A DNA stretch of 44,881 bases from Escherichia phage SM_A2. A model generated the notes under the pieces. It ran no database searches. It was not told the origin of the DNA and was given only the letters and a program-made list of their open reading frames with translations. The stretch lies in sequence record PP920552.1. One strand, written 5' to 3'. The position numbers and the translations under genes were made by a program. Below are positions 6,987 through 39,650 of this stretch, one piece after another. Each line of letters begins with the position of its first letter. The first letter of the stretch is position 1.

Positions 6987-6990
6987 GCAA

Positions 6991-8228: not shown

Positions 8229-8242
8229 TAGGAGCGAATAAA

Positions 8243-8743: not shown

Positions 8744-8744
8744 C

Positions 8745-9188
<444 letters not shown>

Positions 9189-9215
9189 CATGGCGGGATT
9201 TAACTACGCAGGCTT

Positions 9216-9285
<70 letters not shown>

Positions 9286-9300
9286 CGAAGGGGGAGTAAC

Positions 9301-9654: not shown

Positions 9655-9655
9655 T

Positions 9656-10249: not shown

Positions 10250-10671
10250 TGAGCAATACTCTAATCCGCAAGGCGCTTAACAGCGTAGTAGAAGAATTGG
10301 CGGTTAGCCTGAGCACTAACCAGCGTCCGATCCAGGTTAACTGGGAGAACGTGAAGGGCGACCACGCAAACGGCAATGGCGTATACCTTGAGCCGTACCT
10401 GCTACCGGCCCCGACCCAGTTTGCGGGCTTACAGCAGAAGGGCCGGATCTATGCTGGCGTATATCAGGTTGCCTTGGTGTTCCCGGCTGGCACTGGCACA
10501 CAGTACGCGAGCGAACTGGCGGACGCCATCACTACGTCTGATAAGTGGCTGGCGGTGAAGATTTCCGGTGCGTCATTTCAGCTTCAGGACGCGCCATACA
10601 CCAGTTCAGTGATTGAAGACGTTGATCGCGCCCGCATCGTGGTTACAGTACCCTACACCTGTTGCGCCTGA
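10249..10671 (+). CDS. tail completion protein (putative)
   Basis: ATG overlapping the previous stop (TAATG); 140 aa; position just upstream of the major tail gene. Confidence 0.4.
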   Translation: MSNTLIRKALNSVVEELAVSLSTNQRPIQVNWENVKGDHANGNGVYLEPYLLPAPTQFAGLQQKGRIYAGVYQVALVFPAGTGTQYASELADAITTSDKWLAVKISGASFQLQDAPYTSSVIEDVDRARIVVTVPYTCCA

Positions 10672-10732
10672 TTTGGCGCTATTCTGCGCGTGCTGTATCA
10701 TTAAACCGTATATCTAAACAGGAGTGTTCATT

Positions 10733-11458
10733 ATGGGTTATCAACTTCCTAACGGGTCTAGCGTCCAGATTGGGTCCGTACTGGGCAGCGGCATCGCTGT
10801 TACGGCAGCTACCAACGCCGCCGCGTCGATCTCTGATCTTACGAAAGGTTGCGTTATCACCTGCGCGGCTTCTCATGGCCTGCAAGTTGGTGACGTGGTT
10901 ATGTTCACTAAAACCCCGTGGGTCCGTGCGCTGAACCGCGCGTTCATCGTGGGTAAAGTGGCGACTAACGACGTTACGCTGGCGCGCTTCGACACCTCGG
11001 ACGTTACCAAATATCCTACCGGTGCTTTCGGCGTAGGCACACCAGGCGAGGTGGTGAAGGTGTCGAGCTTTATCGACTTCCCGTTTATCACTAACGTCGC
11101 CGTGTCTGGTGGCGACCAGCAGACTACTACCTTCCAGCCGTTGCAGGTGAATACCGCGATTAGTCTGAACACCACGAAAAACCCGTTGGTCCAGACTTAC
11201 ACCTTCACCCATGACGAAGAAGACCCGATCCGCCCAATCCTGGAAGACCTGGACGACACACAGAAAACCACTGTGATTAAGTTCACTAACCCAGCGGCAG
11301 CAAGCGGCAAAGGTGAGATTCGCATTTACCCGGCTAAGGTGTCTTTCCGGAAGATTCCATCGGCTGAAGTAAACAACGTGGAGACGGTGGAGTCCACTCT
11401 GACCATGCAATCCGATATGGTTATTTACCGTAAGGACCTGGTTGAAGCGCTGTCGTAA
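10733..11458 (+). CDS. major tail protein (putative)
   Basis: ATG 10733 with AGGAG RBS; 241 aa; followed by a strong terminator; position upstream of the chaperone and tape measure genes. Confidence 0.6.
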   Translation: MGYQLPNGSSVQIGSVLGSGIAVTAATNAAASISDLTKGCVITCAASHGLQVGDVVMFTKTPWVRALNRAFIVGKVATNDVTLARFDTSDVTKYPTGAFGVGTPGEVVKVSSFIDFPFITNVAVSGGDQQTTTFQPLQVNTAISLNTTKNPLVQTYTFTHDEEDPIRPILEDLDDTQKTTVIKFTNPAAASGKGEIRIYPAKVSFRKIPSAEVNNVETVESTLTMQSDMVIYRKDLVEALS

Positions 11459-11488
11459 TTTGGTCGCTTAAATAGCGGGTGTTAATAT

Positions 11489-11512
11489 GGGGCCAGTACG
11501 GCCCCTTTTTTA
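11489..11512 (+). terminator. intrinsic terminator after major tail gene
   Basis: GGGGCC-AGTAC-GGCCCC hairpin followed by T6. Confidence 0.8.
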
Positions 11513-11527
11513 TTGGAGAATACTACA

Positions 11528-11890
11528 ATGGCAAAAGCACCACTCTTTACACTTGACCCTAAGCCGACTTTTAAGCTGCCGATTGAAATACCGCGCCCTG
11601 GAGAAAACGAACCGGGAAAAATGACGTTTACCGTGCGCCACCGCCCGATCGACGAATTTTCGCAGACCATGCAGGATACTGAGCGCAAGTTGTCGGAGTA
11701 TGACGACAATGACCCTGACGGCTTTAACGTTATGGTCGAGGCCATAATGCACGTCGCAGAAGGCTGGAATCTGCCGGACGAATTTAACGCAGAGAACGTC
11801 CGCCGCCTGGTGGTCAACTATCCGCGTGCGTTCGGCGTGTTCCACACTTCGTACTATCTCGAACTGATGGGATTGCGTGAAAAAAACTAA
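11528..11890 (+). CDS. tail assembly chaperone (gpG-like)
   Basis: ATG 11528 with GGAGAA RBS; acidic 120-aa protein immediately upstream of the tape measure region; ends in a slippery heptamer. Confidence 0.7.
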   Translation: MAKAPLFTLDPKPTFKLPIEIPRPGENEPGKMTFTVRHRPIDEFSQTMQDTERKLSEYDDNDPDGFNVMVEAIMHVAEGWNLPDEFNAENVRRLVVNYPRAFGVFHTSYYLELMGLREKN

Positions 11891-12204
11891 TTGAGGCGGC
11901 GCGACGCTTTTATGGCCCGCCGCCACCATCCGAAGATTTAGCCGCGAGTTTATGGGGCGCGACCCCTGAAGACGTTTGCCCTCCGGTTGCACTATGGCCA
12001 GACAATGCGAAGGTAGTCGCAGTCTTCACAGATTGCTCCACGCAATGGCGTACCGGATTCGGTGGCGCATACGGCATCGACTACGGCGTACTGGAATGGC
12101 TATTTAAGATGCACGGCATCGAAAACGCGCAACGTGCGTTTAAAGATATCAAGCTAATGGAACGCGTTGCGCTGGATGAAATGGCGCGGCAGAACCCCGC
12201 ATAA
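11528..12204 (+). CDS. tail assembly chaperone frameshift product (gpGT-like, via -1 shift at 11881-11887)
   Basis: The -1 frame is open from the slippery site A_AAA_AAC (11881-11887) to TAA at 12202-12204 (about 105 further codons) and has no start codon of its own. Confidence 0.6.
11881..11887 (+). other. programmed -1 ribosomal frameshift slippery heptamer A_AAA_AAC
   Basis: X_XXY_YYZ heptamer at the last codons of the chaperone ORF, 1 nt before its stop; -1 frame continues open downstream. Confidence 0.6.
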
Positions 12205-12588
12205 CGGAGCGGGACAGGCGGGACGTCCCGTTTTGCCCCGCACCTCTAAAACTGCATATTTACGCACCACAATTGCATAAATTAAAAGCGGGACAGGCGG
12301 GACGCCCCGTTTTGTCCCACCCCCAAAATGTGAATGTCTATTCAGTTTTAGTGCATAAACTAAGCGGGACAAAAAGCGGGACAGAATGAGGCGGGACAAA
12401 GCGGGACAGCACCCCCGTCCCCACCAGTGCTGCCGCGGTTTTTAGCCGATCGGGACAGGCGGGACAAAGCCCAGTCTTTCAGACTAGACGGGGGTCAATG
12501 GCCCCCCTCGTCTGAGACTGAATAAGGTTTGTTTTAAATTCGCTGATACAATGACAAACGGCAACTGCATAAAAAGGGGGACTGCATA
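12205..12588. repeat. non-coding iteron/hairpin element, copy 1
   Basis: 384-bp gap with no convincing ORF; about 10 copies of GCGGGAC(A); two 35-bp direct repeats (12209-12243 and 12288-12322); a long imperfect hairpin at 12472-12520; A(C/T)TGCATAA copies. Confidence 0.8.
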
Positions 12589-15231
12589 ATGGCAGATCAG
12601 GCAGCGGGCATCACGCTCAAGGCGGACGTCGCGCAAATTAAAACGGCGAATACTGTGCTGGACACATTTGCGCAGAAATCCGAGAACACAGAACAGAAAG
12701 TCAAAAAATTAAACGACACCCTCGGCAAGTCGAAAAAGGTCACGGGTGACGCCGCTGGCGGAATGGAAAAGTTAGCGACTGAATCTCAGCGTGCCGCCGA
12801 CGGCATGACGAAACAGGAGCGACTCGCCAGCCGATTAGGCATGTCGACCAAAAACCTGGGATTCGCATCGCGGAACGCCGCATTCCAGTTACAGGATATC
12901 GCGGTTACGCTTGAGATGGGTATGCCGGTGCACCGCGTCATGCTTCAGCAGCTACCACAGCTAACCGGCGCATTTGGCGGACTAGGTAACACGCTGCGTT
13001 ATGTTGCAGGCTTCCTCGGCCCCGTAGGGATCGGCCTTGCCGCCGTAACGGCGACGTTAGGCGTGGGTGTTGCAATTACGTCCCGAGCAGAGAACCAGGT
13101 AGCGGCGCTTAATAAGACGCTGGCACTTTCCGGTAACATTTCCGGCCTGACGGCAAACCAGATCCTGGTGCTATCCGAGAACGCCGAGCGCATGGGTGGG
13201 TCGTTCCGCAAGACGCGTGACACAATCCAGGCGCTGGCGGCGGCGGGTGTGAAAGCGGGTGGTGACTTCGGCGCACTGGCGAAGGTAGTGAATGACTTCG
13301 CGAAGGTGTCCAGCCAGCCGATCGAGGATGTGGTAGCGGCGGTGGCGAAGCTGTCAACCGACCCCGTTGGCGGACTGCGTGCGCTGGCGGATAAGTATCA
13401 CGTCGTAAACGAAGCGCAGATCCAGCAGGTACAGTCGCTCGTTGATGCGGGTCGTGAGACAGACGCAGTTGCGTTGGCTAACAAAACAGCCGCTGCGTCG
13501 TTCACCAGCATGACCAATGAGATCAAGGCGAACATGGGTACGCTTGAGCGATCTATGAACGTCGTCACATCGGCAGCCAAATCAATGTGGGATGCCATCC
13601 TGGATGTGGGCCGCGCGCAGTCCTCCAATGAATCCGAGATGAAAGCGCGCGAATCACTGCAGCGGCTGACCACGGCTTACTATGCCGAGATGAAAGCGGT
13701 AAACGCTGCCGGTGGGGTAATGACTGAAGCGCAGAAAGCACGTATTAACATGCTTTACAGCGAACTGGTCGCCCAGGAAAAAGTGGTGGCGTCGCTCACC
13801 CTTCGTAACCGTGCGGAGCGAGACAACGCCCGCGCCGCAGACGAATCCGCAAAGGCGAACGAGGAGGCCAACCGCACTGCCCGTGACCGCGCCGCGTTCG
13901 AGAAGGAATACGCCACCAACGCTAAGAAGCGCGCCGACGAGATCGCCCGCCTCAATTTGCTGAATAAGCGCGGCGTTATTGATGAGAAAGAACTAGCCGA
14001 GGCGGTGAAGCAGGTAAACGAGCGGTACAAAGACCCAGCCCCGAAAAAGGCCGCGGCGGTTCGCGTGGATGCCGGTATGAAAATGCTGGAAGTCGCACGG
14101 AGCGAACTGGCCCAGCTTCGAGAATCCGGCAAGCAGATCGAAGCCAACGCGTCTACGCAGACCCGCACGCAACGCGCTCAAGCGGCCTTAAACAAGCTGA
14201 TCGCCGACAATGAGCAGTTAATCGCTGCGAGCAAAGAAAGAGCGCTAACGGCAGCAGAAAAGCAGCAATTAGTCGAGTTCGGGCGCGTGAAGGAAGTCCG
14301 CGAGCAGATCGTCGAAGAAGCCAAATTGCTGGATGCGAAAGAGCAGCAGGTTAAGGCGCACGCGCAGATCGATGCCTTCGTTAAGAACCAGAACGCCGAA
14401 CTAAAAGCCACCGCCGCGGGGTATGCGCTTTCCACTCGCGAAGCGGCAAACCTGCGCGAAGAATTGCAGCTAATTGACCGCCTGAAGCGGGTTGGCGCTA
14501 ACGATACCGATATTGATAAGGCGGTGTCTAAGCTGCGAGAAGTGCAGGAAGCACAGACCGGCGCTAACGCCTCGTTATGGGATGGATTCAGTCGCGGGCT
14601 TAAGGATAGCGTGGATGAAATGGGTAACGGATATACGCAGATGGCGTCTCTCACGAAATTCACATTCAGCGCTATGCAGGACACGATGAACGAGTTTTTC
14701 GAGACTGGCAAGCTGAACGCAAAGGATATGGTTAAGTCCATCCTGAGCGAATTAATCAAGCTGGCTACCTCGCAGGCGTTCAAGTCCATCGTTAGCGCTT
14801 TCGGTGGCGACGGCGGCAAAAACGGATTGTTCGGCGCTATCTTCTCGGGCCTCACCAAGAATGCGGACGGCGGAGCGTACGCAGGAGGCAATCTCGCGGC
14901 CTATTCTGGGAAAGTGGTAAGCCAGCCTACCTTTTTCAGTTATGGCGTCCAGGCGTTCGCTAAGGGCGCAGGATTGATGGGCGAGGCTGGTCCCGAGGCC
15001 ATCATGCCGCTGAAGCGCGGGCCGGACGGGAAACTGGGCGTTGCCGCGTCTGGCGCAGGCGGTGGTATGGTCGTGACGACTAACGTTTACACGGGGACCG
15101 GTAAAACGGATACCAGTGTCAGCGGGCCGGATCCCCGTACCGCGCAGGCGTTCGGCAAGCAAATCACCGAGGCGGTGAAGGCCGAGATCGTGAAGGCGAC
15201 GAAACCGGGTGGTGTACTTTACAAACGATGA
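12589..15231 (+). CDS. tail tape measure protein
   Basis: 880 aa; long alpha-helical, Ala/Gln/Lys-rich sequence with a Gly-rich C-terminal part; ATG with AAGGGGG RBS; follows the G/GT chaperone. Confidence 0.9.
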   Translation: MADQAAGITLKADVAQIKTANTVLDTFAQKSENTEQKVKKLNDTLGKSKKVTGDAAGGMEKLATESQRAADGMTKQERLASRLGMSTKNLGFASRNAAFQLQDIAVTLEMGMPVHRVMLQQLPQLTGAFGGLGNTLRYVAGFLGPVGIGLAAVTATLGVGVAITSRAENQVAALNKTLALSGNISGLTANQILVLSENAERMGGSFRKTRDTIQALAAAGVKAGGDFGALAKVVNDFAKVSSQPIEDVVAAVAKLSTDPVGGLRALADKYHVVNEAQIQQVQSLVDAGRETDAVALANKTAAASFTSMTNEIKANMGTLERSMNVVTSAAKSMWDAILDVGRAQSSNESEMKARESLQRLTTAYYAEMKAVNAAGGVMTEAQKARINMLYSELVAQEKVVASLTLRNRAERDNARAADESAKANEEANRTARDRAAFEKEYATNAKKRADEIARLNLLNKRGVIDEKELAEAVKQVNERYKDPAPKKAAAVRVDAGMKMLEVARSELAQLRESGKQIEANASTQTRTQRAQAALNKLIADNEQLIAASKERALTAAEKQQLVEFGRVKEVREQIVEEAKLLDAKEQQVKAHAQIDAFVKNQNAELKATAAGYALSTREAANLREELQLIDRLKRVGANDTDIDKAVSKLREVQEAQTGANASLWDGFSRGLKDSVDEMGNGYTQMASLTKFTFSAMQDTMNEFFETGKLNAKDMVKSILSELIKLATSQAFKSIVSAFGGDGGKNGLFGAIFSGLTKNADGGAYAGGNLAAYSGKVVSQPTFFSYGVQAFAKGAGLMGEAGPEAIMPLKRGPDGKLGVAASGAGGGMVVTTNVYTGTGKTDTSVSGPDPRTAQAFGKQITEAVKAEIVKATKPGGVLYKR

Positions 15232-30250: not shown

Positions 30251-30499
30251 GCAGTCGGATATGCTGTCGATAACGCGAACGTCAGCACCGCGGCGGGCCA
30301 TTCGCTCATGTTCACGTACCTGGTGCGGCTTAGGTTTTCCTCCGGGGCGCTTCACTTCGACGAACACTATTTTGCCGTTGATGATAATAATCAGGTCGGG
30401 CGCACCCGCGCGCCCCTCCCATGCAAGTTTTCGGCAGAATCCGCCGACCTCTTTCACCCGTTTCATCAGGTGACTTTGAATCTTGCCTTCTGGTGTCAT
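30221..30499 (-). CDS. VRR-NUC domain nuclease
   Basis: 92 aa; PD...(D/E)xK-type core APDLIIIINGKIVFVEVKRPG characteristic of VRR-NUC. Confidence 0.75.
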   Translation of the reverse strand: MTPEGKIQSHLMKRVKEVGGFCRKLAWEGRAGAPDLIIIINGKIVFVEVKRPGGKPKPHQVREHERMARRGADVRVIDSISDCDLLVAELVA

Positions 30500-32790
30500 T
30501 ACTTCCTGTACCTGTACATAATGTCGCCTTCGGCGGCAAGTGGGAAGCCTTTAGCCCAAATAGGCAGGTCGCACATCAGCGCGCAAAGCTCCTCGGTAGT
30601 GTAGTCGTCGGTGTCCGGCACTTCTGTGATCAATTCGTCGTGTACTGACAGGACGATTTCATACCCCGCAGCTTCAACGCCAGGCATGGACCATGCGAGA
30701 ATATCGCGACACAACGCCTGTACGATGTTCTCCGTCAGTTTGCCGCCGTAGGTATACTGGAATCCCCACTGGCGCGTCGTCTGATTCTCGCCCTGATATT
30801 TAATGCGTGTGCTGGTGCGCTTCTTGCCGGTGTCTTCGTCAATCTCGGTCGTGACCGACAGCGCGATGCCTGGGTAGCTCATGATGCGCCCGGACGGCAA
30901 CTCGATTTTCAACCACCACCCCGCGGCGTTCGGGTCGTCGCGCTCCTCGTCGAAGGTTGGGTCGTGCTTCGCCTTCGTGCGGACTATCTTGAGCGCTTTC
31001 TTACCATCCGGGCGAACGTTCGCGCCAGCCCAGTACGCTTTGCCAGGATTGCGGATTGCACACAACACCGCGTCCTCAAGCTCGGCCCAAAAGGCTACCG
31101 TCTTCGGGTGAGCCTCGCGCCACATGCGTTTAATCGCATCACACGTAAGCCATACGTTTTTCGGCAGTATGTAAGTCGGGCGCTCGTCCTTCTTGCCAGG
31201 CTTCGGCGGTCGCTTCGCTTCGTTAATGCGGGCGTACTCATAACCCCGTTTAGCCGCTGCCCAAATGTGATCGGGGAATGTGCCTTTCATGACGTCCGCC
31301 ATCGCGTAAAGGTCGAGGCCCAGGTTTTTAGCAAACTGCAGGAACGCGGCAACGCCGCCACCATAACCCAGTCCCAATTCGCACGCCTTACCAATCTGGC
31401 GTAAGTCTTTTCGGTTGGCTTTGATGTATTCCGGGTCGAGGCCAAACATCTTACCGGCAGTTTCACAATAGATATCGCGACCCGCCCTAAACACCATTAG
31501 CGCGGTTTTCTCACCAGCGATCCAGGCAAGCCCGCGACCTTCCACGTTAGAATAGTCAGCTACAACAAACTTCTTGCCCTTAGCCGGGATAATGCACCCG
31601 CGAACGGTCGAGGCCGTTAACTTCGATATGTCATACGCCCAGTGCGCTGTCCCGCGTAACAGGGAGTTGATGCCGTTGGTGAGCATGTGCGACCGGACCC
31701 AAAAAGAAACGTCGCTCTCGCCTTCACGGCGCTTAATCTTCCCTTCGTGGTCGTCGCTATACTCGCCGCGTGCCAGGTTTTGCGGCTGGAAGCCCTTACC
31801 GGCCCAGCGTAGCGTGCGTTTCGCCCCGCCATACTGGAGACACCCACGACGGCGACCATCTGCGGATAAGCCATTAACGAGCGGATTGTACTTAGTCGAT
31901 GCCGTTGATGACGCACCGAGGCGCATCTCGATAAGCACTTTGCCCTCGTCGGGGAAGTCCGGGTCTTCCAGCAGGTCGTTAAGCGTGGATTTCTGCGCGT
32001 TGTGGATTGTGAACGCAGGCGCGAGGTCGCGCAGCGCTGGCAGGAAGTCATTGCCTGTCAGCTTACCGCCGAAGCGCTCCCATGCTTCTTCCTTCAATTC
32101 TTCCTTATGCGCCTGCACCGCTTTGATCGCGGCGTTCGCCAGGTCAACGTCCACATAGAAGCCGCGGTCGTTGATCAACTGGTCAATAAGCAGGATTTCA
32201 TCTTCCTTCGGCGTGTTACCCCAGTCCGGTATGCGCCAATAGACTTCCCTCATCGCTATAATATCCAGTGCGGCATAGCGCAGGAATTTAGCCCACTCCT
32301 CGGGGTGCGTCTCGCGCGTGTAGCGGCGGATTTTGTAGGTCTTGGGGGTTGGCTTACAGAATCGTTTGATCAGCGCCTTGCCCGCCTTATCCTTCGCGTG
32401 CTCTGCGTCGACGCCCAACACCTGGCACTGCATATCGAGGCTACCCGGCAGCGCGTGGCGAAAGGCCATAATCATGGTATCCTCGATCTGGCCTACCGGC
32501 AGGTCAATGCCCCACTTCTCGCGAATAACCAGGCGGTCAAACAGGAGGCCGTTAGCCATCACTATTTTTGCTTTCTTGCGGGATACCTGGCGGAGCGCCT
32601 TGCGCAGTTCACGCGGCATTGTTGGGGACTCGGTGCAATCCCATGTCTGCACGCGGCCCTCGTCTATGGCGTACGTGCAAATCATAATCTCGGTTGTTGG
32701 GTGTTCTGCGTAGGCGTATGCGCCCACTTTCTTCAGGTCCACCCCGCTAAATGTCTCGGTATCGAGAAAAAGGCGTTCGAAGTCTTTCAT
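30499..32790 (-). CDS. DNA polymerase I-like (family A) with 3'-5' exonuclease domain
   Basis: 763 aa; N-terminal exo motif LFLDTETFSG (DxE); C-terminal polymerase motif C-like SVHDELITEV; basic finger-like segments. Confidence 0.9.
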   Translation of the reverse strand: MKDFERLFLDTETFSGVDLKKVGAYAYAEHPTTEIMICTYAIDEGRVQTWDCTESPTMPRELRKALRQVSRKKAKIVMANGLLFDRLVIREKWGIDLPVGQIEDTMIMAFRHALPGSLDMQCQVLGVDAEHAKDKAGKALIKRFCKPTPKTYKIRRYTRETHPEEWAKFLRYAALDIIAMREVYWRIPDWGNTPKEDEILLIDQLINDRGFYVDVDLANAAIKAVQAHKEELKEEAWERFGGKLTGNDFLPALRDLAPAFTIHNAQKSTLNDLLEDPDFPDEGKVLIEMRLGASSTASTKYNPLVNGLSADGRRRGCLQYGGAKRTLRWAGKGFQPQNLARGEYSDDHEGKIKRREGESDVSFWVRSHMLTNGINSLLRGTAHWAYDISKLTASTVRGCIIPAKGKKFVVADYSNVEGRGLAWIAGEKTALMVFRAGRDIYCETAGKMFGLDPEYIKANRKDLRQIGKACELGLGYGGGVAAFLQFAKNLGLDLYAMADVMKGTFPDHIWAAAKRGYEYARINEAKRPPKPGKKDERPTYILPKNVWLTCDAIKRMWREAHPKTVAFWAELEDAVLCAIRNPGKAYWAGANVRPDGKKALKIVRTKAKHDPTFDEERDDPNAAGWWLKIELPSGRIMSYPGIALSVTTEIDEDTGKKRTSTRIKYQGENQTTRQWGFQYTYGGKLTENIVQALCRDILAWSMPGVEAAGYEIVLSVHDELITEVPDTDDYTTEELCALMCDLPIWAKGFPLAAEGDIMYRYRK

Positions 32791-32957: not shown

Positions 32958-32970
32958 TTCTCATTGTCCT

Positions 32971-32997
32971 ATTAAAAAGCCCGCATTAAGCGGGCTT
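32971..32997 (-). terminator. intrinsic terminator (minus strand)
   Basis: AGCCCGC-ATTA-GCGGGCT hairpin followed on the minus strand by a T-run (TTTTAAT). Confidence 0.6.
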
Positions 32998-33015
32998 GAA
33001 TAGTGGGCCTTGCCC

Positions 33016-33816
33016 TTAACGGCGGCGACGTTTGCGTGGCGCTTCGTCTTCGTCGTCGTCCTCATCATCTTCGTCATCGCGTGGCTTACGACGTTTGCGA
33101 GGTGTTTCATCTTCGTCGTCGTCATCGCGGCGCTTGGACTTTTTGGACTTGCGCGGCTTGTCGTCTTCGTCATCGTCATCACGACGTTTTGACTTTTTGG
33201 ACTTACGCGGGCTTTCGTCTTCGTCGTCGTTATCCAGGTCTTCGTCGGAACATGAAGACCCGCCACCGCCGAAGGCTTCGCCGTCTTCACGGAATCGCAG
33301 ACCCAGCAAGCCCGCCCCGAGTCCCTTGCCGTTGGTATTGTTCCATGCCCAAATATCAAGGGACACGTTGCAATAACAACCGGGGTAGATCTCCTGGCCT
33401 TCGATCTCGTCGCCTTCTACGGTCAGACCTTGTTCAGTCTGCTTCTCGCCGAGTGACGTTTGGATGATAGGCTGTTTGAACGATTTGGCGTTGATATACA
33501 ACATGCCTTCGAATTCTTCGGTTACTTCGTCGCGCTCGTCACCGTCGCGGACTGCGCATTCCTTAGAATCCTGGGCGTAGTGGCGGTCCATCCACTTATC
33601 GGCATTCTTCTCGGATTTCAGCTTGTCGGTGAGCACTGCGCGCGCTGCCGCTTCCACTTTGTCCACCTGCGGATCTTCTTTATCAAGAAGAATCACGGCG
33701 CGGTATGCCGGTTTTTGTCCATCCTGTTTAGGGGTATCACGTTCCCAAATTTTCAGGAAACATACGCGCACATTTTTCAGGTTGACTTTAGCCATTTTCC
33801 AATTCCTCATTTTCAC
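33016..33816 (-). CDS. ssDNA-binding-like protein (DUF2815-type, putative) with charged repeat tail
   Basis: 266 aa; location next to the DUF2800-like nuclease and polymerase matches the conserved phage replication module; C-terminal about 70 aa alternate poly-acidic and poly-basic blocks from tandem DNA repeats (about 33040-33235). Confidence 0.5.
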   Translation of the reverse strand: MKMRNWKMAKVNLKNVRVCFLKIWERDTPKQDGQKPAYRAVILLDKEDPQVDKVEAAARAVLTDKLKSEKNADKWMDRHYAQDSKECAVRDGDERDEVTEEFEGMLYINAKSFKQPIIQTSLGEKQTEQGLTVEGDEIEGQEIYPGCYCNVSLDIWAWNNTNGKGLGAGLLGLRFREDGEAFGGGGSSCSDEDLDNDDEDESPRKSKKSKRRDDDDEDDKPRKSKKSKRRDDDDEDETPRKRRKPRDDEDDEDDDEDEAPRKRRRR

Positions 33817-33885
33817 ATGTATCGGGGTTATTGGAAGCCACCCCGTTCGGCTTGGTTGCTAATCTACTTGGTTGCGCCTACGCGG

Positions 33886-34128
33886 TCAAGCATTTTCATT
33901 AAAAAGATTTCTGGTCACGTAGTTGGTAGCGTTCTCGATCCAGCTTAGCGGCGGGCGTTCGATGTTCTTTTCCACCCAATCGACGGCAACTTCGCTATAT
34001 CCGTCATCCAGCCAGCGGGTCGGATGGCGAATCATCCACGCCACCATTAACACGCCTTGCACGCAATGCAGGATAAAGCCCAGCGCGCCGAGCAAAAACA
34101 TCAATAAGATTGCGAATACTTTATTCAT
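33886..34128 (-). CDS. small membrane protein (hypothetical)
   Basis: 80 aa; two hydrophobic helices (VFAILLMFLLGALGFIL, GVLMVAWMI). Confidence 0.45.
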   Translation of the reverse strand: MNKVFAILLMFLLGALGFILHCVQGVLMVAWMIRHPTRWLDDGYSEVAVDWVEKNIERPPLSWIENATNYVTRNLFNENA

Positions 34129-35551
34129 TGCTTAAGTCCTCGTCAGTAGCTTCCGACCACGCAGGGCGCGGGTCGTCGATTGGAGCTAACACCGGTTTGG
34201 CAGGTGCGCGCGTGATTTTATCACACAGCTTCGCCCACACTTTCGGTTTTTCGTCCTTCAGTACCTTCTCGGCATCCGTAGGGCTGAGCAATGTTTCTTT
34301 GTACATCACATCGCGCTTGATCCGGGCCTTCGTGAAGATTTCAATCACTTCGCTCTCGTCCGCCCACTTACGGATCCCTTCCTTACCGGCAACCATCTTG
34401 AGGCCCAGCGATTCGCCATCGCCCGCCATGACCGCCTTGAATACCGCGGACTCGATAGCCTTGATGTGCTGGCGCATTGCGTCCAGGCCTTCATAAGCCT
34501 TGCGCAGTTCCGCAGCGCTCATAGCACCGGGGGCCGCTTCTTTCTTGCCACGCTTCGCACGTCGGGCCGCCTTCCGGGCTTCGCGGGCCATATTGCGGTC
34601 GTGATTGGCGCATTCTTCCTCGGTCGCCACGCTCACGTCGTCGCCCAGGTCTTCGTCGGTTGCCGTTGGAGGTGTCATCGTGTCGATTGCGGCCTTAGCG
34701 CGGGCACTACACTGATCCGCAAATCGGCACCACTGGCACGCATCAACGCTGGGACGGAAGTCGGCACGGGTAAGTCCCTTCTTGCCTCGGGAATACGCCT
34801 CCAGTGCGGCAATAGCGCGCTTGGATGCAAACTTCGCGAATATCTCCAGCGCTTCTACCGAAATATCCCACTCCGACGCCCCGCCGCAATACGGCTGGAA
34901 GATAACCAGGCGCACGGTCGTAATGTCGTACATAGTTTGCAGCTTGCGCAGCAGGCCGAGCGCGTACAACATAAGCTGTTTGTTTTCTTTCGCCTCGACC
35001 TTATGCCTCCCGGTCTTCAGGTCGCCAACAATCAGCATGTACGTCCCATCGGTCTTTTTCATGACCATGACCATATCGGCAGTACCGAACGTTTTAATCC
35101 TGTTGCCGTCGATCTCGTAGCCTGAGTGAAGGACGCGGGTCAGATCGGCGCGCATCTCAAGCTGGACAAACTCCGCCACTTCGAGGAGCGGTCGCCAGTG
35201 GTCGATGTACGCGTCGCACTGTTTCACCATGTCGTCGTTGACCAGTACGCCGCCTTTCGGTGCTTTAGGGTGTGCCTTCACTGGCCCCTTGCCTTCGTTC
35301 TCGACGTAGCACCCTTTATACGTCTTCGCGGTTATCAGCTTCTCACCGGCGATAATGCGGTTTAGCACCACCTCAGATACGGTGTGCATACTCGTACCGT
35401 TAATCGCGGCTTGCCCGGATTCGTTCGGGATATCTTTTTCCACCACCAGGGCAGCAGGGCAACCCATCCACTTTTTAGCACCGGATGGCCCAAGTAATGA
35501 GTGTTCTGTATTGCTACCGGATTGCGTTTTACGTTTTGGTTTAATCGCCAT
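34121..35551 (-). CDS. DUF2800-type PD-(D/E)XK nuclease (Cas4-like, Fe-S cluster)
   Basis: 476 aa; N-terminal LLGPSGAKKWMGCPA; nuclease core (IVGDLKTGRHKVEAKENKQLMLYALGL); C-terminal Cys cluster CQWCRFADQC consistent with a 4Fe-4S site. Confidence 0.7.
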   Translation of the reverse strand: MAIKPKRKTQSGSNTEHSLLGPSGAKKWMGCPAALVVEKDIPNESGQAAINGTSMHTVSEVVLNRIIAGEKLITAKTYKGCYVENEGKGPVKAHPKAPKGGVLVNDDMVKQCDAYIDHWRPLLEVAEFVQLEMRADLTRVLHSGYEIDGNRIKTFGTADMVMVMKKTDGTYMLIVGDLKTGRHKVEAKENKQLMLYALGLLRKLQTMYDITTVRLVIFQPYCGGASEWDISVEALEIFAKFASKRAIAALEAYSRGKKGLTRADFRPSVDACQWCRFADQCSARAKAAIDTMTPPTATDEDLGDDVSVATEEECANHDRNMAREARKAARRAKRGKKEAAPGAMSAAELRKAYEGLDAMRQHIKAIESAVFKAVMAGDGESLGLKMVAGKEGIRKWADESEVIEIFTKARIKRDVMYKETLLSPTDAEKVLKDEKPKVWAKLCDKITRAPAKPVLAPIDDPRPAWSEATDEDLSNE

Positions 35552-36029: not shown

Positions 36030-36641
36030 TTAATCTTCCAGTTCGAAATAAGTTTCGACGATTTCTTTAAGATCTTTGTGGAAGTCTTCGACGTCGTCAT
36101 CTTCCAGCTTGGCGATTGATTTGATCTCGAACGATTCCAGCAGGTCGTCGAATTCGTCGTTGGCATCGTCGTCGTCACCACCAGCGATAATAGCGGCGTA
36201 TTGTTTGATCTCATCGCGCATCTCCGCCAGCGGATCGGCATCTTTCTTGCCTTTGCCTTTCGCCGGGGCTTTTTTAGATTTAGCCGGTTTTTCGTCTTCG
36301 GCGTCATCGTCGTCATCTTCTTCTACGACTTCTTTTTTGGCCTTACCTTTCGCCGGGGCTTTTTTAGATTTAGCCGGTTTTTCGTCTTCGGCGTCATCGT
36401 CGTCATCTTCTTCTACGACTTCTTTTTTCGCCTTACCTTTCGCCGGGGCTTTTTTAGATTTAGCCGGTTTTTCGTCTTCGGCGTCATCGTCGTCATCTTC
36501 TTCTACGACTTCTTTTTTCGCCTTAGACGGCTTCTTGTCTTCCTGCTTACCAACGGCAGCGCCAACGGTTTCATAATGCTTAGCGATGGTTTCCAGTGCT
36601 ACTACGCCGCGAGTAATCAGGTTTACGATTTGTTCAAACAT
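36030..36641 (-). CDS. charged-repeat protein, first gene of leftward operon
   Basis: 203 aa; three tandem 38-aa repeats (KKEVVEEDDDDDAEDEKPAKSKKAPAKGKAKK) from 114-bp DNA repeats (about 36245-36530); strongly acidic C-terminus; GGAGAT RBS. Confidence 0.6.
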   Translation of the reverse strand: MFEQIVNLITRGVVALETIAKHYETVGAAVGKQEDKKPSKAKKEVVEEDDDDDAEDEKPAKSKKAPAKGKAKKEVVEEDDDDDAEDEKPAKSKKAPAKGKAKKEVVEEDDDDDAEDEKPAKSKKAPAKGKGKKDADPLAEMRDEIKQYAAIIAGGDDDDANDEFDDLLESFEIKSIAKLEDDDVEDFHKDLKEIVETYFELED

Positions 36642-36846
36642 GTTTTATATCTCCGATTGGTTAAGTTTAGGTGTCGGCAGTTAACTTCGTCGGTGGCCTT
36701 AACATATTGCCAGGTTGCGCGTTCTCCCGTTCGGGTAGTGGACCGGGTTATATATTCACGGTTGGGAATCCTGACACTTCGATCCGGCCCCTGCGTTGCC
36801 CCTCTCCAGTTTGCGTCCTGCATCCTGTCGACGGGGTGAATAATAG

Positions 36847-37385: not shown

Positions 37386-39650
37386 ATGAGCTTAATTAAA
37401 TTCGCTGTAACAAGACCCGCTAAAAAAGGCGAAAAAGCCAGGGCGGAAAACTTCCAGATGACCACCGATGAATTTTTCGAATTTATCAATGATGCGAAAG
37501 AAATCTCCTCGGTGCATATCAACAAGACGGAAGATAAAGCCGAGTATGCGCGCCGCAAGCGTAAGGCCGACGGCATCGTGGCGTATACCAGTGACGGATT
37601 GCGTCGTAAGACCAGTGCGGTGGACCGCTCGATCCTGTTCTTCGATATTGACCGCACCGACACCCGCACCCTACGCCGCTGCCGTAAGGCGTTCATTGAC
37701 GCGGGTCTGGAGCACGTCTTCCACACCACAACCGGCGACCGTCACCCACTGAAAGGCGGCACGCGTTGCGCTCGATTCCTGGTGCTCACTGACAAGCCTG
37801 TACCGGCTGAAGACCTGGGCCGCGTCCAGTATGCACTATTACACCAACTGGGTCTGTCAGATGTGGACTTCGACGATTGCACGAAAGACACAAACCGCCT
37901 GATGTACCTGCCACACCAGCAGTCTGTTATTAAGTGCCACTATGGCAAGCGCGCCCGCGTCCGTCGTCTGCTCCTCCTGGCTGACAAGCTGGGAGTTGAG
38001 AAAGAGGAAGTCCGTCGCGAACTGACCCAGGGCGACGACGCAGTGGCAGACGGCATTCTGGACTGGTGCTTCCAGGCAGGATTCGAGGAGTTATCTTCAG
38101 GGCGGGGCTATGAAGTGCCGTGCCCGAACGAACATCTGCACAGCGGCGAAGGGTCGACGGCTATCATGGTTAAGGATGGCGAGATCCGTTTCAAGTGTAT
38201 GCACACCGGCAACGAGTGTTGCTCGGAGCTGAACAGACACCAGCACCTGGCGCTACGTCTTATCGGGATCCCGGACCACCTGAACGTCGAGCCACACAAT
38301 ATGTCCCGTAAGCAAATCGCCGCCATCCTTCCGGGGCTGGACGTCGAGGAAGTCGAATCCTTATATGAACATATTGTTGATGCGGTTGGCGACGGCGAAG
38401 AATACGGCGTGTGCACCGATGCGGATCTGGATAACGAGCCGGTTGCGCTGTTCAGTAAGCACGACCCGATTATCGAGGGGTTGATTAACTTTAAATCGAC
38501 CTGGTATATGGCGGGTGAGTCGAATATCGGTAAGTCTTTCTACGTGCTGGGCCAGATGGGCGCGGTTGCCGCCGGTATTCCGTTTGGCGGTGCGAAGGTC
38601 GTACAGTCTCATTGCTTCTATTTCGACGCGGAAGGTGGCGAAGCCTCCAACCAGCGTAAAGAAGCATTGCAGATTAAATACGAGCACGACCTGGACAAGC
38701 TGCACATTATAGACCTGCAGTCACGCGGCTGGGATATCACCAGCAAATCGGGCTTGCGCGAAGTTATCAGCTTTATCAACCGCACCGCTAACGGCGAACC
38801 GGTTGGCCTGGTGGCGTTCGACTCACTCAACCAGACTGTTGCGTTGCGGTCCGCCGAGGCTAAACCGTTCGACGAGAACAACGCCAGCGATATGGGCGAA
38901 GTGGTCAAAGCGCTGAAGGCCATCGCGGAAAATACAGGTGGCAGTGCGGGCGTCATCCACCACCCGGCTAAAGGTGCAAACGGCAGCAGAACGCCACGCG
39001 GGTCCGGCGCGCTGCATGGTGCTGTCGATTCTGCGTTCTTCCTGGAACAGCCGGACGACAACCAGCCCGGACAATTGAACCTGTATCATGAGAAGTCACG
39101 TAACGGCATCAAGCAAGCGCCGCGCGGCTTCGTCCTGCTTAAGTGCAAGGTGAAGGTGGATCTCCGCAAGTCAGAAGCGTTCGAGGCGCACCAGTCCACC
39201 AGCACCGGTCCAGACTTCGGCGACGTGGTTGCCGGATGGGACGTCAAGCCGATCGCCTCCACGCCACGCGACGAGACTCTCTACCTCGTACCGGTTGCCC
39301 TGGCACCTTTCGCTATTGAACAGGCGAAGGCAGCAGGCAAGGCCGCGGTTAAGGAAGAGAACACCGCCGGGCCGCGCAACGAAAAAGAGAAAGTGCTTTA
39401 TGCGGCACTGGAAAAACTGATGGAAGATAACCCGGACCATACTGGATTCAGTAAATCGGCAATTGTCCGCCAGGCGGGACTCGCGAAAGGCGGCACTTCG
39501 ACGAAGGCAATCGACGATATGGTGGAGCGCGGAGTGATAGGTTTCTATACCGATCCGCACACCGGGGCCATCTATGGGTCGTCTAATTTGGTCATAAAAA
39601 CGGATATACCAATCACGCTTTCGGCGACCGACGAAGACTTGAAAGATTAA
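37386..39650 (+). CDS. DNA primase / helicase (primase-polymerase N-domain + P-loop NTPase)
   Basis: 754 aa; N-terminal acidic motif ILFFDIDRTD; Cys/His cluster (CPNEHLH...CMHTGNECC); Walker A GESNIGKS and Walker B-like LVAFDS. Confidence 0.8.
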   Translation: MSLIKFAVTRPAKKGEKARAENFQMTTDEFFEFINDAKEISSVHINKTEDKAEYARRKRKADGIVAYTSDGLRRKTSAVDRSILFFDIDRTDTRTLRRCRKAFIDAGLEHVFHTTTGDRHPLKGGTRCARFLVLTDKPVPAEDLGRVQYALLHQLGLSDVDFDDCTKDTNRLMYLPHQQSVIKCHYGKRARVRRLLLLADKLGVEKEEVRRELTQGDDAVADGILDWCFQAGFEELSSGRGYEVPCPNEHLHSGEGSTAIMVKDGEIRFKCMHTGNECCSELNRHQHLALRLIGIPDHLNVEPHNMSRKQIAAILPGLDVEEVESLYEHIVDAVGDGEEYGVCTDADLDNEPVALFSKHDPIIEGLINFKSTWYMAGESNIGKSFYVLGQMGAVAAGIPFGGAKVVQSHCFYFDAEGGEASNQRKEALQIKYEHDLDKLHIIDLQSRGWDITSKSGLREVISFINRTANGEPVGLVAFDSLNQTVALRSAEAKPFDENNASDMGEVVKALKAIAENTGGSAGVIHHPAKGANGSRTPRGSGALHGAVDSAFFLEQPDDNQPGQLNLYHEKSRNGIKQAPRGFVLLKCKVKVDLRKSEAFEAHQSTSTGPDFGDVVAGWDVKPIASTPRDETLYLVPVALAPFAIEQAKAAGKAAVKEENTAGPRNEKEKVLYAALEKLMEDNPDHTGFSKSAIVRQAGLAKGGTSTKAIDDMVERGVIGFYTDPHTGAIYGSSNLVIKTDIPITLSATDEDLKD

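Follow-up and report, generated by a model that had tools for sequence, protein, structure and literature searches.

The ssDNA-binding protein (SSB) of Escherichia phage SM_A2 has, judging by its sequence and predicted structure, a disordered, net-acidic and blocky polyampholyte where such proteins usually end in a short acidic tail. The gene lies in a stretch of 44,881 nt (PP920552.1), called here the window. A second protein of the same replication/recombination module, encoded at 36030-36641, has a linker of matching character and an end domain whose charge is opposite to that of the SSB tip. A charge-coded interaction between the SSB tip and this partner, with multivalent disordered linkers, has in our estimate close to an even chance of being the correct explanation.

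The SSB and its OB-fold domain

The gene and its folded domain are located as follows.

33016..33795, minus strand: SSB gene, 259 aa from the ATG at 33795, with PF10991, PHROG 112 and PDB matches
33259..33795, minus strand: OB-fold domain of the SSB, residues 1-179 counted from MAKV (AlphaFold2, Foldseek)

The mechanically called ORF (33016-33816, minus strand) has 266 aa and a GTG start. The true start is likely the ATG at 33795 (MAKVNLKN), which has an AGGA 9 nt upstream. The SSB matches the PF10991 profile with 105.5 bits (cut-off 26, E=3.2e-30) over residues 10-200 and PHROG 112 with E=1.6e-52, and among PDB sequences it matches 4klk, 4jg2 and 5odj at about 1e-11. Residues 1-172 were modelled by AlphaFold2 with pLDDT above 90. 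In Foldseek the model matched 4klk (3e-13), the Enc34 SSB with ssDNA (5odl, 9e-13) and T7 gp2.5 (1je5, 5e-7), and the T7-type OB-fold variant was supported by a probability of 1.00 to 4klk, 5odl, 5odj, 4jg2 and 1je5. There is a motif IYPGCYCN, in which Gly139 is invariant and Tyr137 and Cys140 are nearly invariant, aligned with VYSGVY / VYSGCY in 4klk and 4jg2. The aromatic stacking residue that opens strand beta-4 is Trp150 in Enc34 and Tyr158 in T7. Dhillonvirus orthologues of the 33016-33795 product carry the SSB annotation.

By sequence and model, the product is a T7 gp2.5/Enc34-type SSB from a Dhillonvirus-like coliphage. The SSB-like N-terminal domain that the earlier note on this DNA had proposed is thus borne out by PF10991, PHROG 112 and a predicted structure matching Enc34 SSB and T7 gp2.5. 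The protein is already known through its SECphi4 orthologue, a documented Gp2.5-family SSB that triggers Retron-Eco8 (bioRxiv 10.1101/2022.08.27.505566). We found no published description of its charge-striped tail in the literature.

Architecture of the tail

The tail and its parts are listed below in the order of the protein, followed by the underlying DNA repeat.

33019..33249, minus strand: polyampholyte tail of the SSB, 77 aa, four acid-x-P-base units, net charge -8
33181..33246, minus strand: tail unit 1, DEDLDNDDEDE-SPRKSKKSKRR; its acidic block is conserved in every Dhillonvirus SSB
33127..33180, minus strand: tail unit 2, DDDDEDD-KPRKSKKSKRR; internal, presence varies among relatives
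33079..33126, minus strand: tail unit 3, DDDDEDE-TPRKRRKPR; internal, presence varies among relatives
33019..33078, minus strand: tail unit 4, DDEDDEDDDEDE-APRKRRRR, with the basic C-terminal tip
33105..33234, no strand assigned: DNA tandem repeat, 54-nt period, 2.4 copies, 84% matches (Tandem Repeats Finder), underlying units 1-3

The C-terminus of the SSB reads SDEDLDNDDEDE-SPRKSKKSKRR-DDDDEDD-KPRKSKKSKRR-DDDDEDE-TPRKRRKPR-DDEDDEDDDEDE-APRKRRRR-stop. It contains four copies of the unit [D/E]7-12-x-P-[K/R]6-9, with APRKRRRR last. The stretch 33016-33235, to which the tail had been assigned, comprises the stop codon and the final 72 codons, while the full tail is 33019-33249.

The tail has 35 D/E and 27 K/R in 77 residues, being 81% charged. 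Its same-sign charge runs number 8, whereas 2000 shuffles gave 31.5±3.9 and never fewer than 19, which confirms the alternation of acidic and basic repeat blocks noticed earlier. Its kappa is about 0.62, and this combination of a high charged fraction and strong charge segregation is that of blocky polyampholyte IDRs. In AlphaFold2 the tail has a pLDDT of about 50 and no secondary structure, and it is predicted to be disordered. An ER/K single alpha-helix (SAH) domain was considered and rejected on account of the Asp-rich blocks of 7-12 residues, the proline at nearly every acid-to-base junction and the lack of a helix in the AlphaFold2 model. The short, purely acidic tail with a hydrophobic or aromatic end is absent, the K/R residues of the SSB being distributed over four blocks and its sequence ending in RKRRRR. 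The bacterial SSB-Ct tip (acidic residues then I/L-P-F) is absent as well, the C-terminus being APRKRRRR.

The tail had been described as encoded by tandem DNA repeats. This holds for units 1-3, with their 54-nt period, but not for unit 4, which has diverged; only the first three units form a recognisable tandem repeat, because the repeat spans 33105-33234. Comparison of units 2 and 3 shows 10 changed positions in 54 nt, with 7 synonymous and 2 non-synonymous codon differences. Among the ORFs of the window, at least three alternating charge blocks were found in the SSB and in 36030-36641 only.

Frame and stop of the tail

The tail is real and in frame, as far as the sequences of the phage and its relatives can tell. 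One further feature bears on this point.

32970..32997, minus strand: intrinsic-terminator-like hairpin, AAGCCCGC-TTAAT-GCGGGCTT then T5, read from the sequence

A wrong frame or a wrong stop could have produced a fictitious tail, an annotation artefact to which we give next to no chance. All three frames are open over the tail repeat, and two database clusters, P0005 (phage vB_EcoS-22664B1) and P0008, carry a different, frameshifted tail. However, the 22664B1 record contains a single-nucleotide indel, and the DNA downstream of it encodes a perfect DDDDEDEAPRKAKKSKRR...APRKRRRR-stop in the normal frame. Frame and stop are kept in 19 distinct tails from Dhillonvirus and in over 100 clusters of homologues, the homologues being where the earlier note had advised looking for an artefact, and large within-gene length differences among relatives are multiples of 3. 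The hairpin begins about 20 nt past the SSB stop codon, is conserved in phage 22664B1 and also argues for the stop; it is not among the entries of a consensus terminator scan. On the 22664B1 indel and the 19 Dhillonvirus tails an artefactual frame or stop is rejected.

Overprinted genes across the repeat (among the open frames 33032-33376 on the plus strand, poly-Ser, and 32961-33359 on the minus strand) were also rejected, being mirror or shifted readings of GAN/AAR codon repeats. In the databases, ORFs in other frames over the repeat match frameshifted SSBs only.

The tail among relatives

The PF10991 family was surveyed by phmmer with the OB domain alone, which gave 1835 relatives. A first homologue list was enriched in similar tails, its candidates having been picked by shared 5-residue words, and the OB-domain-only search corrects this. 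In that search of a representative library about 10% of the PF10991 family representatives bear alternating tails, so the polyampholyte tail is not particular to this phage. Among the 150 nearest family representatives the majority show the canonical form, which is short, purely acidic and ends in a hydrophobic tip, in agreement with the short acidic tip that had been given earlier for canonical SSBs. A search with a tail-dominated alignment returned low-complexity matches only.

In the Dhillonvirus sequences the tail consists of a conserved first acidic block, 0-3 near-neutral [D/E]n-x-P-[K/R]n cassettes, a last acidic block and the basic APRKRRRR tip. This tip is invariant in 18 of the 19 distinct tails, the exception being KAPRKRRRR, and in the final 12 codons there are 5 synonymous alternative codons and 1 non-synonymous. 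Synonymous changes exceed non-synonymous ones both between units (7:2) and in the tip (5:1), as would be expected of selection at the peptide level. The tail-length comparison among homologues that had been suggested gave 1-4 units in the SSB and 0-3 in the partner. Unit count is therefore not critical, since copy number ranges from 1 to 4 within the genus; net charge stays between -3 and -10 at any unit number. Gain and loss of cassettes are in frame and fit unequal recombination or slippage on the 54-nt DNA repeat.

Across the alternating tails proline stands at +2 in 265 of 318 acid-to-base junctions (83%) against 9 of 101 base-to-acid junctions, which are direct; proline makes up 4% of tail residues. 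The block pattern persists in homologues with OB domains 24-35% identical, whose tails are unalignable and yet keep the block grammar. Three distant PF10991 homologues (P0088, P0098 and P0111) combine alternating cassettes with an IPF-type tip. In some distant members of the family the C-terminus is IPF or APF. A poorly resolved NJ tree of 195 OB domains has about 17 changes of tail state, which suggests more than one origin or loss of alternating tails.

The partner protein and its gene neighbourhood

The partner, its parts and the surrounding genes of the module are as follows.

30499..32790, minus strand: family A DNA polymerase, downstream of the SSB
34121..35551, minus strand: DUF2800 / PD-(D/E)XK exonuclease, between the partner and the SSB
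36030..36641, minus strand: partner protein, 203 aa, PHROG 3127 at E=3.6e-53
36570..36638, minus strand: partner N-terminal helix, residues 2-24 (FEQIVNLITRGVVALETIAKHYE), AlphaFold2 pLDDT about 69
36237..36569, minus strand: partner polyampholyte linker, residues 25-135, disordered, three 30-aa units
36045..36233, minus strand: partner C-terminal three-helix bundle, residues 137-199, AlphaFold2 pLDDT 89-95
37386..39650, plus strand: replicative helicase-primase (AAA_25), divergent from the partner gene

The charge pattern of this second protein had been likened to that of the SSB tail, and the likeness is real. A 90-nt DNA repeat (36241-36525, 3.2 copies, 97% matches) encodes KKEVVEEDDDDDAEDEKPAKSKKAPAKGKA three times, and the linker has 10 charge runs against 33.7±4.1 in shuffles. 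The view that the protein is unrelated to the SSB has to be abandoned: in the gene neighbourhoods compared it is conserved, keeps synteny with the SSB and belongs to the same replication/recombination module.

No significant match to the partner was found in Pfam, NCBIfam or PDB fold searches, and in BFVD it matches uncharacterised phage proteins only. The N-terminal helix is conserved across lineages (pN HMM, 42 hits). The bundle is strongly acidic, with a net charge of -18 in the last 55 aa; it has no significant PDB fold match, so that no structural relative backs a peptide-binding role. Dhillonvirus homologues have 0-3 linker units and 115-239 aa. An alignment of 8-12 lineages shows a conserved layout of N-terminal helix, linker and C-terminal helical domain, upstream of the DUF2800 exonuclease. 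In Dhillonvirus, Eiauvirus, Cornellvirus, Jerseyvirus and Kagunavirus the partner gene is located 1.1-2.9 kb upstream of the SSB gene, and it is also present in distant metagenomic lineages with different primases; syntenic homologues were found in all lineages examined. The gene order exonuclease / polymerase / primase-helicase around the SSB recurs at distant loci.

Ksap1, the KpAvs2 trigger of Dhillonviruses, was considered as the second protein and discarded, having 74 aa and being encoded elsewhere in the genome. A nucleotide local alignment of the SSB repeat with the partner repeat scored 23, against a codon-shuffle maximum of 21, with the shared motif EDE-x-P-x-KSKK. This is weak evidence for a recent DNA transfer between the two repeats, which is not established.

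Covariation of the SSB tail and the partner

The partner HMM matched at all 40 alternating-tail loci with enough upstream sequence. A restriction of the partner to alternating-tail phages, as in the first result (40/40 vs 0/64), was rejected after a broader HMM brought up weakly matching syntenic homologues in phages with canonical tails, where the linkers are uncharged. The matches in these canonical-tail clades are weak (E 1e-4 to 0.08), and 83 canonical loci have none. The covarying features are linker type and charge, not the presence of the partner gene.

Partner linkers with at least two charge blocks occur at 43 of 59 alternating-tail loci and at 2 of 30 canonical-tail loci. After clustering at 70% OB identity the counts are 13/22 and 2/13 (Fisher p=0.016), and the mean net charge of the partner C-domain is -11.3 at alternating-tail loci and 0.0 at canonical-tail loci. 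The charge of the final 8 residues of the SSB is anticorrelated with that of the partner C-domain, in statistics that, like those for the linkers, ignore phylogeny and cover 17-35 clusters, a modest number of independent lineages, with a Spearman coefficient of -0.77 for 89 loci, -0.74 for 35 clusters and -0.79 (p=1.4e-4) for 17 clusters at 50% identity. Composition fails as the cause of this covariation between tip and partner, because the charges in the two proteins are opposite.

Two alternating-tail lineages (L139 and L143) have partner linkers that are only weakly charged. Within the genus, BLAST span lengths gave no pattern of copy-number covariation between the SSB and the partner, the partner-region spans being confounded by other indels; phage welsh has 1 SSB unit, yet a long partner region. 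Multivalency is thus not strictly required, since copy number varies freely (1-4 in the SSB, 0-3 in the partner).

A proposed mechanism and its alternatives

The C-terminal tails of SSBs are hubs that recruit replication, recombination and repair proteins. To our knowledge this hub is acidic in every bacterial and phage system studied. In SM_A2, the matching linkers and the charge-matched end domain suggest that the SSB and the partner work together. In the charge-coded interaction that we favour, the acidic blocks would keep the canonical gp2.5/Enc34 role as ssDNA mimics occupying the OB cleft, in cis or in trans, and this occupancy would tune ssDNA versus dsDNA binding and offer a handle for replisome proteins. 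Removal of the acidic tail of Enc34 ORF6 allows dsDNA binding (PMC5686142), and in T7 gp2.5 the tail is a competitor of ssDNA at the OB fold and also a binding site for the polymerase and the helicase (PMC10359462). The basic tip would be a docking peptide in place of the canonical acidic-hydrophobic tip, and its candidate target is the acidic three-helix bundle of the PHROG 3127 partner in the same operon; the peptides relevant to this proposal are DEDEAPRKRRRR and DDKPRKSKKSKRR. The tail cassettes and the matching cassettes of the partner linker may act as multivalent electrostatic stickers. These would cluster SSB-coated ssDNA with the partner and, through it, with the exonuclease, polymerase and primase module, in an assembly that would be salt-sensitive and possibly condensate-like. 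Condensation through a disordered linker and tip is documented for E. coli SSB (PMC7584906, PMC12143593), and in Caulobacter the alternating charge blocks of RNase E drive BR-bodies (PMC12510024).

A shared interaction or condensation module had already been suggested for the two proteins. This putative module receives comparative support from the covariation of linker type and charge. A broader version, possible but doubtful, has the SSB tail and PHROG 3127 as a charge-coded pair that organises the DUF2800/PF10991/PolA module, with a polarity of tip and bundle that flipped in evolution. Docking would have two polarities, an acidic tip on a neutral or basic bundle in some lineages and a basic tip on a strongly acidic bundle in others. 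With the flip both proteins would also have gained [D/E]n-x-P-[K/R]n cassettes, making the pair multivalent, and condensation of SSB-coated ssDNA by these cassettes may form a phage replication or recombination compartment.

Several other explanations were weighed against the charge-coded interaction. The tail may be a tolerated low-complexity expansion, produced by slippage or unequal recombination in the purine-rich repeat DNA of a permissive disordered spacer, with the alternation only keeping it soluble and roughly net acidic; the likeness of the partner linker would then reflect shared ancestry, mutational bias or genome composition. We consider this fairly unlikely. The units are indeed encoded by DNA tandem repeats, viable close relatives range over 1-4 units in the SSB and 0-3 in the partner, copy numbers show no clear covariation within the genus, and composition is a possible confounder, as the phages of the canonical-tail clades are for the most part environmental and of high GC content, with partner linkers rich in Ala and Pro. 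However, mere tolerance does not account for a block grammar that outlasts OB divergence to 24-35% identity, including the +2 proline at 83% of acid-to-base junctions, nor for the excess of synonymous over non-synonymous changes between units and in the tip, the invariance of the tip within the genus, and a covariation of opposite sign between the SSB tip and a folded partner domain, which goes beyond composition. Also unlikely is a reading of the tail as a regulator acting in cis only, in which the acidic blocks auto-inhibit the OB cleft and the basic ones aid annealing through non-specific affinity for DNA or through charge screening. The partner would be uninvolved and its similar linker a coincidence. 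The control of ssDNA/dsDNA discrimination by the Enc34 tail (PMC5686142), the modulation of on and off rates by the T7 gp2.5 tail (PMC10359462), the annealing-protein annotation of PHROG 112 members and the conserved net negative charge of the tail all fit such a regulator, but it leaves unexplained why the linker and bundle charge of the partner track SSB tail type and tip charge, and why conservation along the tail is highest at its very end.

Evasion of host defence appears very improbable. A variable tail might escape systems that sense SSBs (Retron-Eco8, Hachiman, ShosTA, AbpAB) or avoid host proteins that bind a DDDIPF-type tip, and the Dhillonvirus SSB is a known Retron-Eco8 trigger, with a tail of hypervariable length within the genus and a basic tip that differs from the host SSB tip. 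Against this, the escape mutations in the published supplement (T56P, N152H and F106V) are all in the OB domain, deletion of the T7 C-tail leaves Retron-Eco8 activation unaffected (PMC13402713), and the tip and the first acidic block are conserved rather than diversifying.

These results point to a widespread natural class of T7-type SSBs with a basic tip and a polyampholyte linker, and to a conserved partner, annotated without a function, that appears to have co-evolved with them. If the pairing is true, PHROG 3127 and its relatives, a group found in many siphophage replication modules, would receive their first assigned function, and the result would bear on defence systems sensing phage SSBs. 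It would also give a simple, genetically tractable system for asking how the charge pattern of a short disordered region governs the clustering of proteins on ssDNA in bacteria; E. coli K-12 is a host of Dhillonviruses, and variants with 0-4 cassettes occur in nature. If the pairing is false, the tail would be a clean case of a tolerated, fast expanding and contracting repeat in an essential protein.

Comparison with known systems

The SSB of SECphi4/SECphi18 (Dhillonvirus) is an orthologue, with the four-unit architecture in the SECphi18 tail and no essential difference from the SM_A2 protein. The SECphi4 SSB was assigned to the Gp2.5 family from an AlphaFold model of residues 1-186, which omitted the flexible C-terminal residues and left the tail undescribed (bioRxiv 10.1101/2022.08.27.505566). 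The ORF6 SSB of Enc34, an Enterobacter/Hafnia phage, shares the Pfam family PF10991 (formerly DUF2815) and the predicted OB-fold variant (5odj, 5odk, 5odl), with an OB-domain identity of only about 22%. It has the same gene neighbours, a DUF2800 exonuclease and a family A polymerase, and its unstructured C-terminal segment also opens with an acidic block. However, the tail of Enc34 is a short and purely acidic one, 16 of its last 29 residues being D/E (PMC5686142), while that of SM_A2 has 77 aa, four acid/base units and a basic tip.

T7 gp2.5 is of the same fold class (1je5, E=5e-7) and likewise has an OB domain and a flexible, net-acidic C-terminal tail. By analogy, the same roles would be expected of both proteins, in ssDNA coating, annealing and replisome organisation. 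The T7 tail has 26 aa and is purely acidic, unlike the SM_A2 tail with its 27 K/R and RKRRRR end. Contacts of gp2.5 with the polymerase and the helicase depend on its C-terminal Phe. We know of no PHROG 3127 homologue in T7. For the partner, there is some likeness to lambda Red-beta, whose C-terminal three-helix bundle binds lambda Exo and the SSB C-terminal peptide. Both are small three-helix bundles encoded beside an exonuclease and an ssDNA-binding/annealing protein, and the binding by Red-beta is of the sort that the partner bundle would carry out under our proposal. The match of the Red-beta bundle (6m9k) to that of the partner in Foldseek (E=5.9, probability 0.12) is a lead only; the proteins have no sequence similarity, and the partner has an N-terminal helix and a long linker instead.

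Disordered alternating positive and negative blocks, as in the SSB tail, are found in the C-terminal domain of Caulobacter RNase E (PMC12510024) and in Ki-67 (PMC9106583). With 77 aa the SSB tail is far smaller than these regions; it also differs in being joined to an SSB and has no homology to them. E. coli SSB also consists of an OB domain, a disordered linker of variable length and a short docking tip, and its multivalent linker/tip contacts lead to phase separation and partner recruitment (PMC7584906, PMC12143593). It differs from SM_A2 SSB in OB fold type and oligomeric state. Its linker is Gly/Gln/Pro-rich and nearly uncharged and its tip is acidic-hydrophobic, whereas in SM_A2 81% of the linker residues are charged and stand in blocks, and a basic tip follows.

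Genomic context

The window (44.9 kb) is in essence one whole genome, that of a Dhillonvirus-like siphophage of E. coli; a 1.5-kb query around the SSB tail retrieved 154 phage records, almost all of them from Escherichia or Shigella Dhillonviruses (top identity 95.8%). The SSB gene lies in a leftward operon, from which a helicase-primase gene diverges:

from 37386, divergent: helicase-primase
36641 to 36030 (-): partner protein, 203 aa
35551 to 34121 (-): DUF2800 / PD-(D/E)XK exonuclease
between exonuclease and SSB: 80-aa ORF
33795 to 33016 (-): SSB
after SSB: terminator hairpin
between hairpin and polymerase: 56-aa ORF
32790 to 30499 (-): family A DNA polymerase

A sigma-70-like promoter match (TTGACC, 17 nt spacer, TAGATT; 33861-33889, -), one consensus match not above shuffle expectation, is found ~65 nt ahead of the SSB start, within the 3' end of the 80-aa ORF. 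The polymerase is ~900 nt longer in some relatives (L003, EP23; L005, SO-1; L014, Ent1), where it is annotated with an intein or intron; that of the window (763 aa) has no insertion.

The SSB and its tail

Residues 10-200 of the SSB match Pfam PF10991 (Enc34_ssDNA-bd, formerly DUF2815; E=3e-30), and the protein matches PHROG 112 (Gp2.5-like SSB/annealing protein; E=1.6e-52) and the PDB sequences 4klk, 4jg2 and Enc34 ORF6 5odj (~1e-11). In an AlphaFold2 model with 40 homologues, residues 1-172 have pLDDT >90, while the tail (~50) is without secondary structure. Foldseek returned DUF2815 proteins, ssDNA-bound Enc34 SSB and T7 gp2.5, each with probability 1.00. All these approaches agree with the ssDNA-binding-like protein read from the sequence in the earlier note. 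The SSB itself is already known: the SECphi4/SECphi18 orthologue is a published Gp2.5-family SSB, whose 'flexible C-terminal residues' were omitted there.

The disordered tail is composed of four acidic/basic units, ending in a conserved basic tip:

unit 1: DEDLDNDDEDE-SPRKSKKSKRR
unit 2: DDDDEDD-KPRKSKKSKRR
unit 3: DDDDEDE-TPRKRRKPR
unit 4: DDEDDEDDDEDE-APRKRRRR

The tail is net-acidic (35 D/E and 27 K/R in 77 residues) and blocky: kappa is ~0.62, and its residues form 8 same-sign charge runs, where 2000 shuffles gave 31.5±3.9 (minimum 19). The underlying DNA repeat (33105-33234) has a 54-nt period, 2.4 copies and 84% matches by Tandem Repeats Finder. Among the window ORFs scanned, none besides the SSB and the partner has at least three alternating charge blocks. 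Thus the repeat blocks ending the SSB, and the tandem DNA repeats said to encode them, were correctly seen and placed, and are far beyond chance. An ER/K single alpha-helix was ruled out for the tail by its proline, its Asp-rich blocks and the AlphaFold2 model.

An annotation artefact (a wrong stop or frame) has next to no probability as the source of the tail, since the reading frame is intact in 19 distinct Dhillonvirus tail sequences and a hairpin with a T-run, seen by direct sequence reading, follows the stop codon by ~20 nt. Two database entries with a differing tail, cluster P0008 and vB_EcoS-22664B1 (L145, MZ234008.1, 386-1195), are frameshifted. The latter carries a single-nucleotide indel, GACGCGATGAC in place of GACGACGATGAC, so its annotated tail is Thr/Lys/Met-rich and runs 55 nt beyond the normal stop; past the indel the normal frame still encodes a perfect ...APRKRRRR*, and the frameshift is probably a sequencing error.

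Another repeat, of the hexamer (GCCAGA)n, was found at 9077-9328, where ORF 8724-9188 (+) thereby ends in ~20 Pro-Glu dipeptides. The repeat, together with the ribosome-binding site and opening codons of the following gene, is copied by an exact tandem duplication of 111 nt (9105-9328, 100% match), so that ORF 9190-9654 (+) reads MAGFNYAGL-(SQ)12-SRRGSN-MAGFNYAGLKRK... Either the junction is truly duplicated or the assembly is at fault, and the true start of ORF 9190-9654 is probably the second ATG.

Tail variation within and beyond the genus

Within Dhillonvirus the tail has one unit (welsh, DEDLDNDDEDE-APRKRRRR, 28 aa counting from the FGGGG motif that closes the OB domain), two (EP23), three (HK578, Envy, CHD5UKE2) or four (window, SO-1, rolling, SECphi18). 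All share the first acidic block and the APRKRRRR tip, internal cassettes being gained and lost, and net tail charge stays at -3 to -10 irrespective of unit number. Alternative codons in the last 12 codons are synonymous in 5 cases and non-synonymous in 1; window units 2 and 3 differ at 10/54 nt, and of their codon differences 7 are synonymous and 2 non-synonymous. Purifying selection thus acts on the tail peptide, but cassette number is not critical.

A first homologue search gave ~110 alternating-tail clusters, the most divergent at 24-35% identity, and was biased toward similar tails because candidates had been pre-selected through shared 5-residue words. A phmmer search free of this bias, run with only the OB domain against 1.84 billion representatives, found 1835 relatives. 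Most of the best 150 are 175-205 aa long, and their short acidic tail closes with a hydrophobic tip (DDDIPF, DDLV or similar); ~12-16 (roughly 10%) have an alternating tail or a basic tail preceded by an acid block. An NJ tree of 195 OB domains, itself poorly resolved, places the basic-block tails in two large clades and numerous small ones, which takes at least 17 Fitch changes; from this we read only that there was not a single origin. The [D/E]n-x-P-[K/R] grammar is kept across all alternating-tail lineages compared. Proline stands at +2 after the acidic run in 265/318 junctions, against 9/101 in the base-to-acid junctions, which are direct, and 4% of all tail residues.

A conserved partner protein

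The second protein with a similar charge pattern does carry one: its repeat (36241-36525, 90-nt period, 3.2 copies, 97% matches) shows charge segregation comparable to that of the SSB tail. It had been taken as unrelated, but it is a conserved, syntenic partner. HMMs of its N-helix and C-domain match 40/40 alternating-tail loci with sufficient upstream sequence. It matches PHROG 3127 (E=3.6e-53), and no Pfam or NCBIfam family. The AlphaFold2 model has three parts:

residues 2-24: N-terminal helix
residues 25-135: disordered linker
residues 137-199: three-helix bundle, confident (pLDDT 89-95)

No PDB fold was significant (top match E=0.42), the Red-beta C-terminal domain at E=5.9 being a lead only; BFVD matches were uncharacterised phage proteins, including eiAU Gp46 and the MB78 'late protein'. 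Dhillonvirus linkers hold 0-3 thirty-residue cassettes, in proteins of 115-239 aa. Several records (homologues P0271, P0337, P0352) annotate a 59-aa N-terminal extension (MQDANWRGAT...); these longer forms (231-239 aa) are probably start-codon mis-annotations, because in the window the same stretch is a separate overlapping 66-aa ORF (36623-36823, -).

A protein of this architecture lies 1.1-2.9 kb upstream of the SSB, between primase/helicase and exonuclease. It was found in Eiauvirus, Cornellvirus, Jerseyvirus and Kagunavirus, in three distant metagenomic phages whose SSB tails alternate, and in five other lineages, also distant, one being an element of a Labrenzia genome. This element (L139, Labrenzia sp. 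contig AXCE01000011.1, ~4778-14695) is a compact gene set in a bacterial chromosome, beside flagellin and ABC-transporter genes. It encodes a Prim-Pol primase, the partner, DUF2800, an SSB whose tail has 17 blocks, a protein of 620 aa and an SNF2 helicase. Phage structural genes are absent within 10 kb, and it may be a satellite or defective element. Its partner ends in its own acid-APKARRR-DDL tail.

Covariation of the two proteins

An initial absence of the partner from canonical-tail loci (0/64) was overturned by a broader C-domain HMM, which detected weak syntenic homologues (E 1e-4 to 0.08; Bacillus phage Carmen17 gp29, 2.6e-10). These share the N-helix (MSLEQAL...) and the C-domain (...GRDAAVAVLSKFGAAKLPDVKPEQF...), with an uncharged, Ala/Pro/Thr-rich linker; what covaries is therefore protein character, not gene presence. 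Carmen17 gp29 (L019, 6594-7514; canonical SSB tail) has 306 aa and apparently carries the C-terminal-domain motif three times in tandem (...FAEFNIASVVGLPESDLRKF..., ...LDKLGVKKLSDLSEDQYATF..., ...LKEFGAVSLTKIPKDQYSDF...), which suggests that the bundle itself may be multiplied instead of linker cassettes.

The comparison covers 89 loci with a complete SSB and a detectable partner; the HMM is weak in canonical clades, where 83 loci gave no match.

Partner features by SSB tail type (statistics ignore kinship)
Linker with at least 2 charge blocks: alternating 43/59; canonical 2/30
Same, clustered at 70% OB identity: alternating 13/22; canonical 2/13; Fisher p=0.016
Mean net charge of three-helix bundle: alternating -11.3; canonical 0.0

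Bundle charge is anticorrelated with the charge of the eight C-terminal SSB residues (Spearman, again with kinship ignored throughout, -0.77 over all loci; -0.74 in 35 clusters; -0.79 in 17 clusters at 50% identity, p=1.4e-4). The trend is also present inside the alternating group, where basic tips (window +6, L011 +5, L037 +5) occur with very acidic bundles (-17 to -21) and acidic tips (L144, L140, L009) with bundles of +1 to -6. Genome composition cannot produce opposite charges in two proteins. As exceptions, the alternating-tail lineages L139 and L143 have weakly charged partner linkers, each partner ending in a small acid-x-P-base tail of its own. The partner's linker grammar matches that of the SSB tail, and its folded domain is charge-complementary.

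Proposed mechanism and comparison with known systems

The acidic blocks may still occupy the OB cleft, as they do in gp2.5 and Enc34: removal of the Enc34 tail permits dsDNA binding (PMC5686142), and the T7 tail is a competitor of ssDNA that also touches the polymerase and the helicase (PMC10359462). The basic tip would be a docking peptide for the acidic bundle of the partner, and the cassettes of both proteins could act as multivalent electrostatic stickers, clustering SSB-coated ssDNA with the enzymes of the module. We put this mechanism forward tentatively, as a whole at somewhat below an even chance. A tolerated repeat expansion with no specific role, favoured by the changing cassette number and opposed by the selection on the peptide, is unlikely. 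Slightly less probable is a regulator of DNA binding and annealing acting purely in cis. A decoy driven by defence seems improbable: the SECphi4/SECphi18 SSB does trigger Retron-Eco8, but T56P, N152H and F106V, the escape mutations that the supplement shows, all fall in the OB domain.

Neither the tail type nor its covariation with PHROG 3127 is described in the Enc34 and retron papers, and full-text literature on DUF2815 or polyampholyte SSBs gave nothing on this tail type, an absence of evidence bounded by the literature covered. The proposed mechanism offers a first functional hypothesis for the conserved partner. Its sticker step has analogues in E. coli SSB condensates (PMC7584906, PMC12143593) and in the charge-block scaffold of Caulobacter RNase E (PMC12510024). 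The alternating tail does not amount to a new kind of system; it departs clearly and widely from the 'acidic SSB tail' rule, and it is amenable to experiment.
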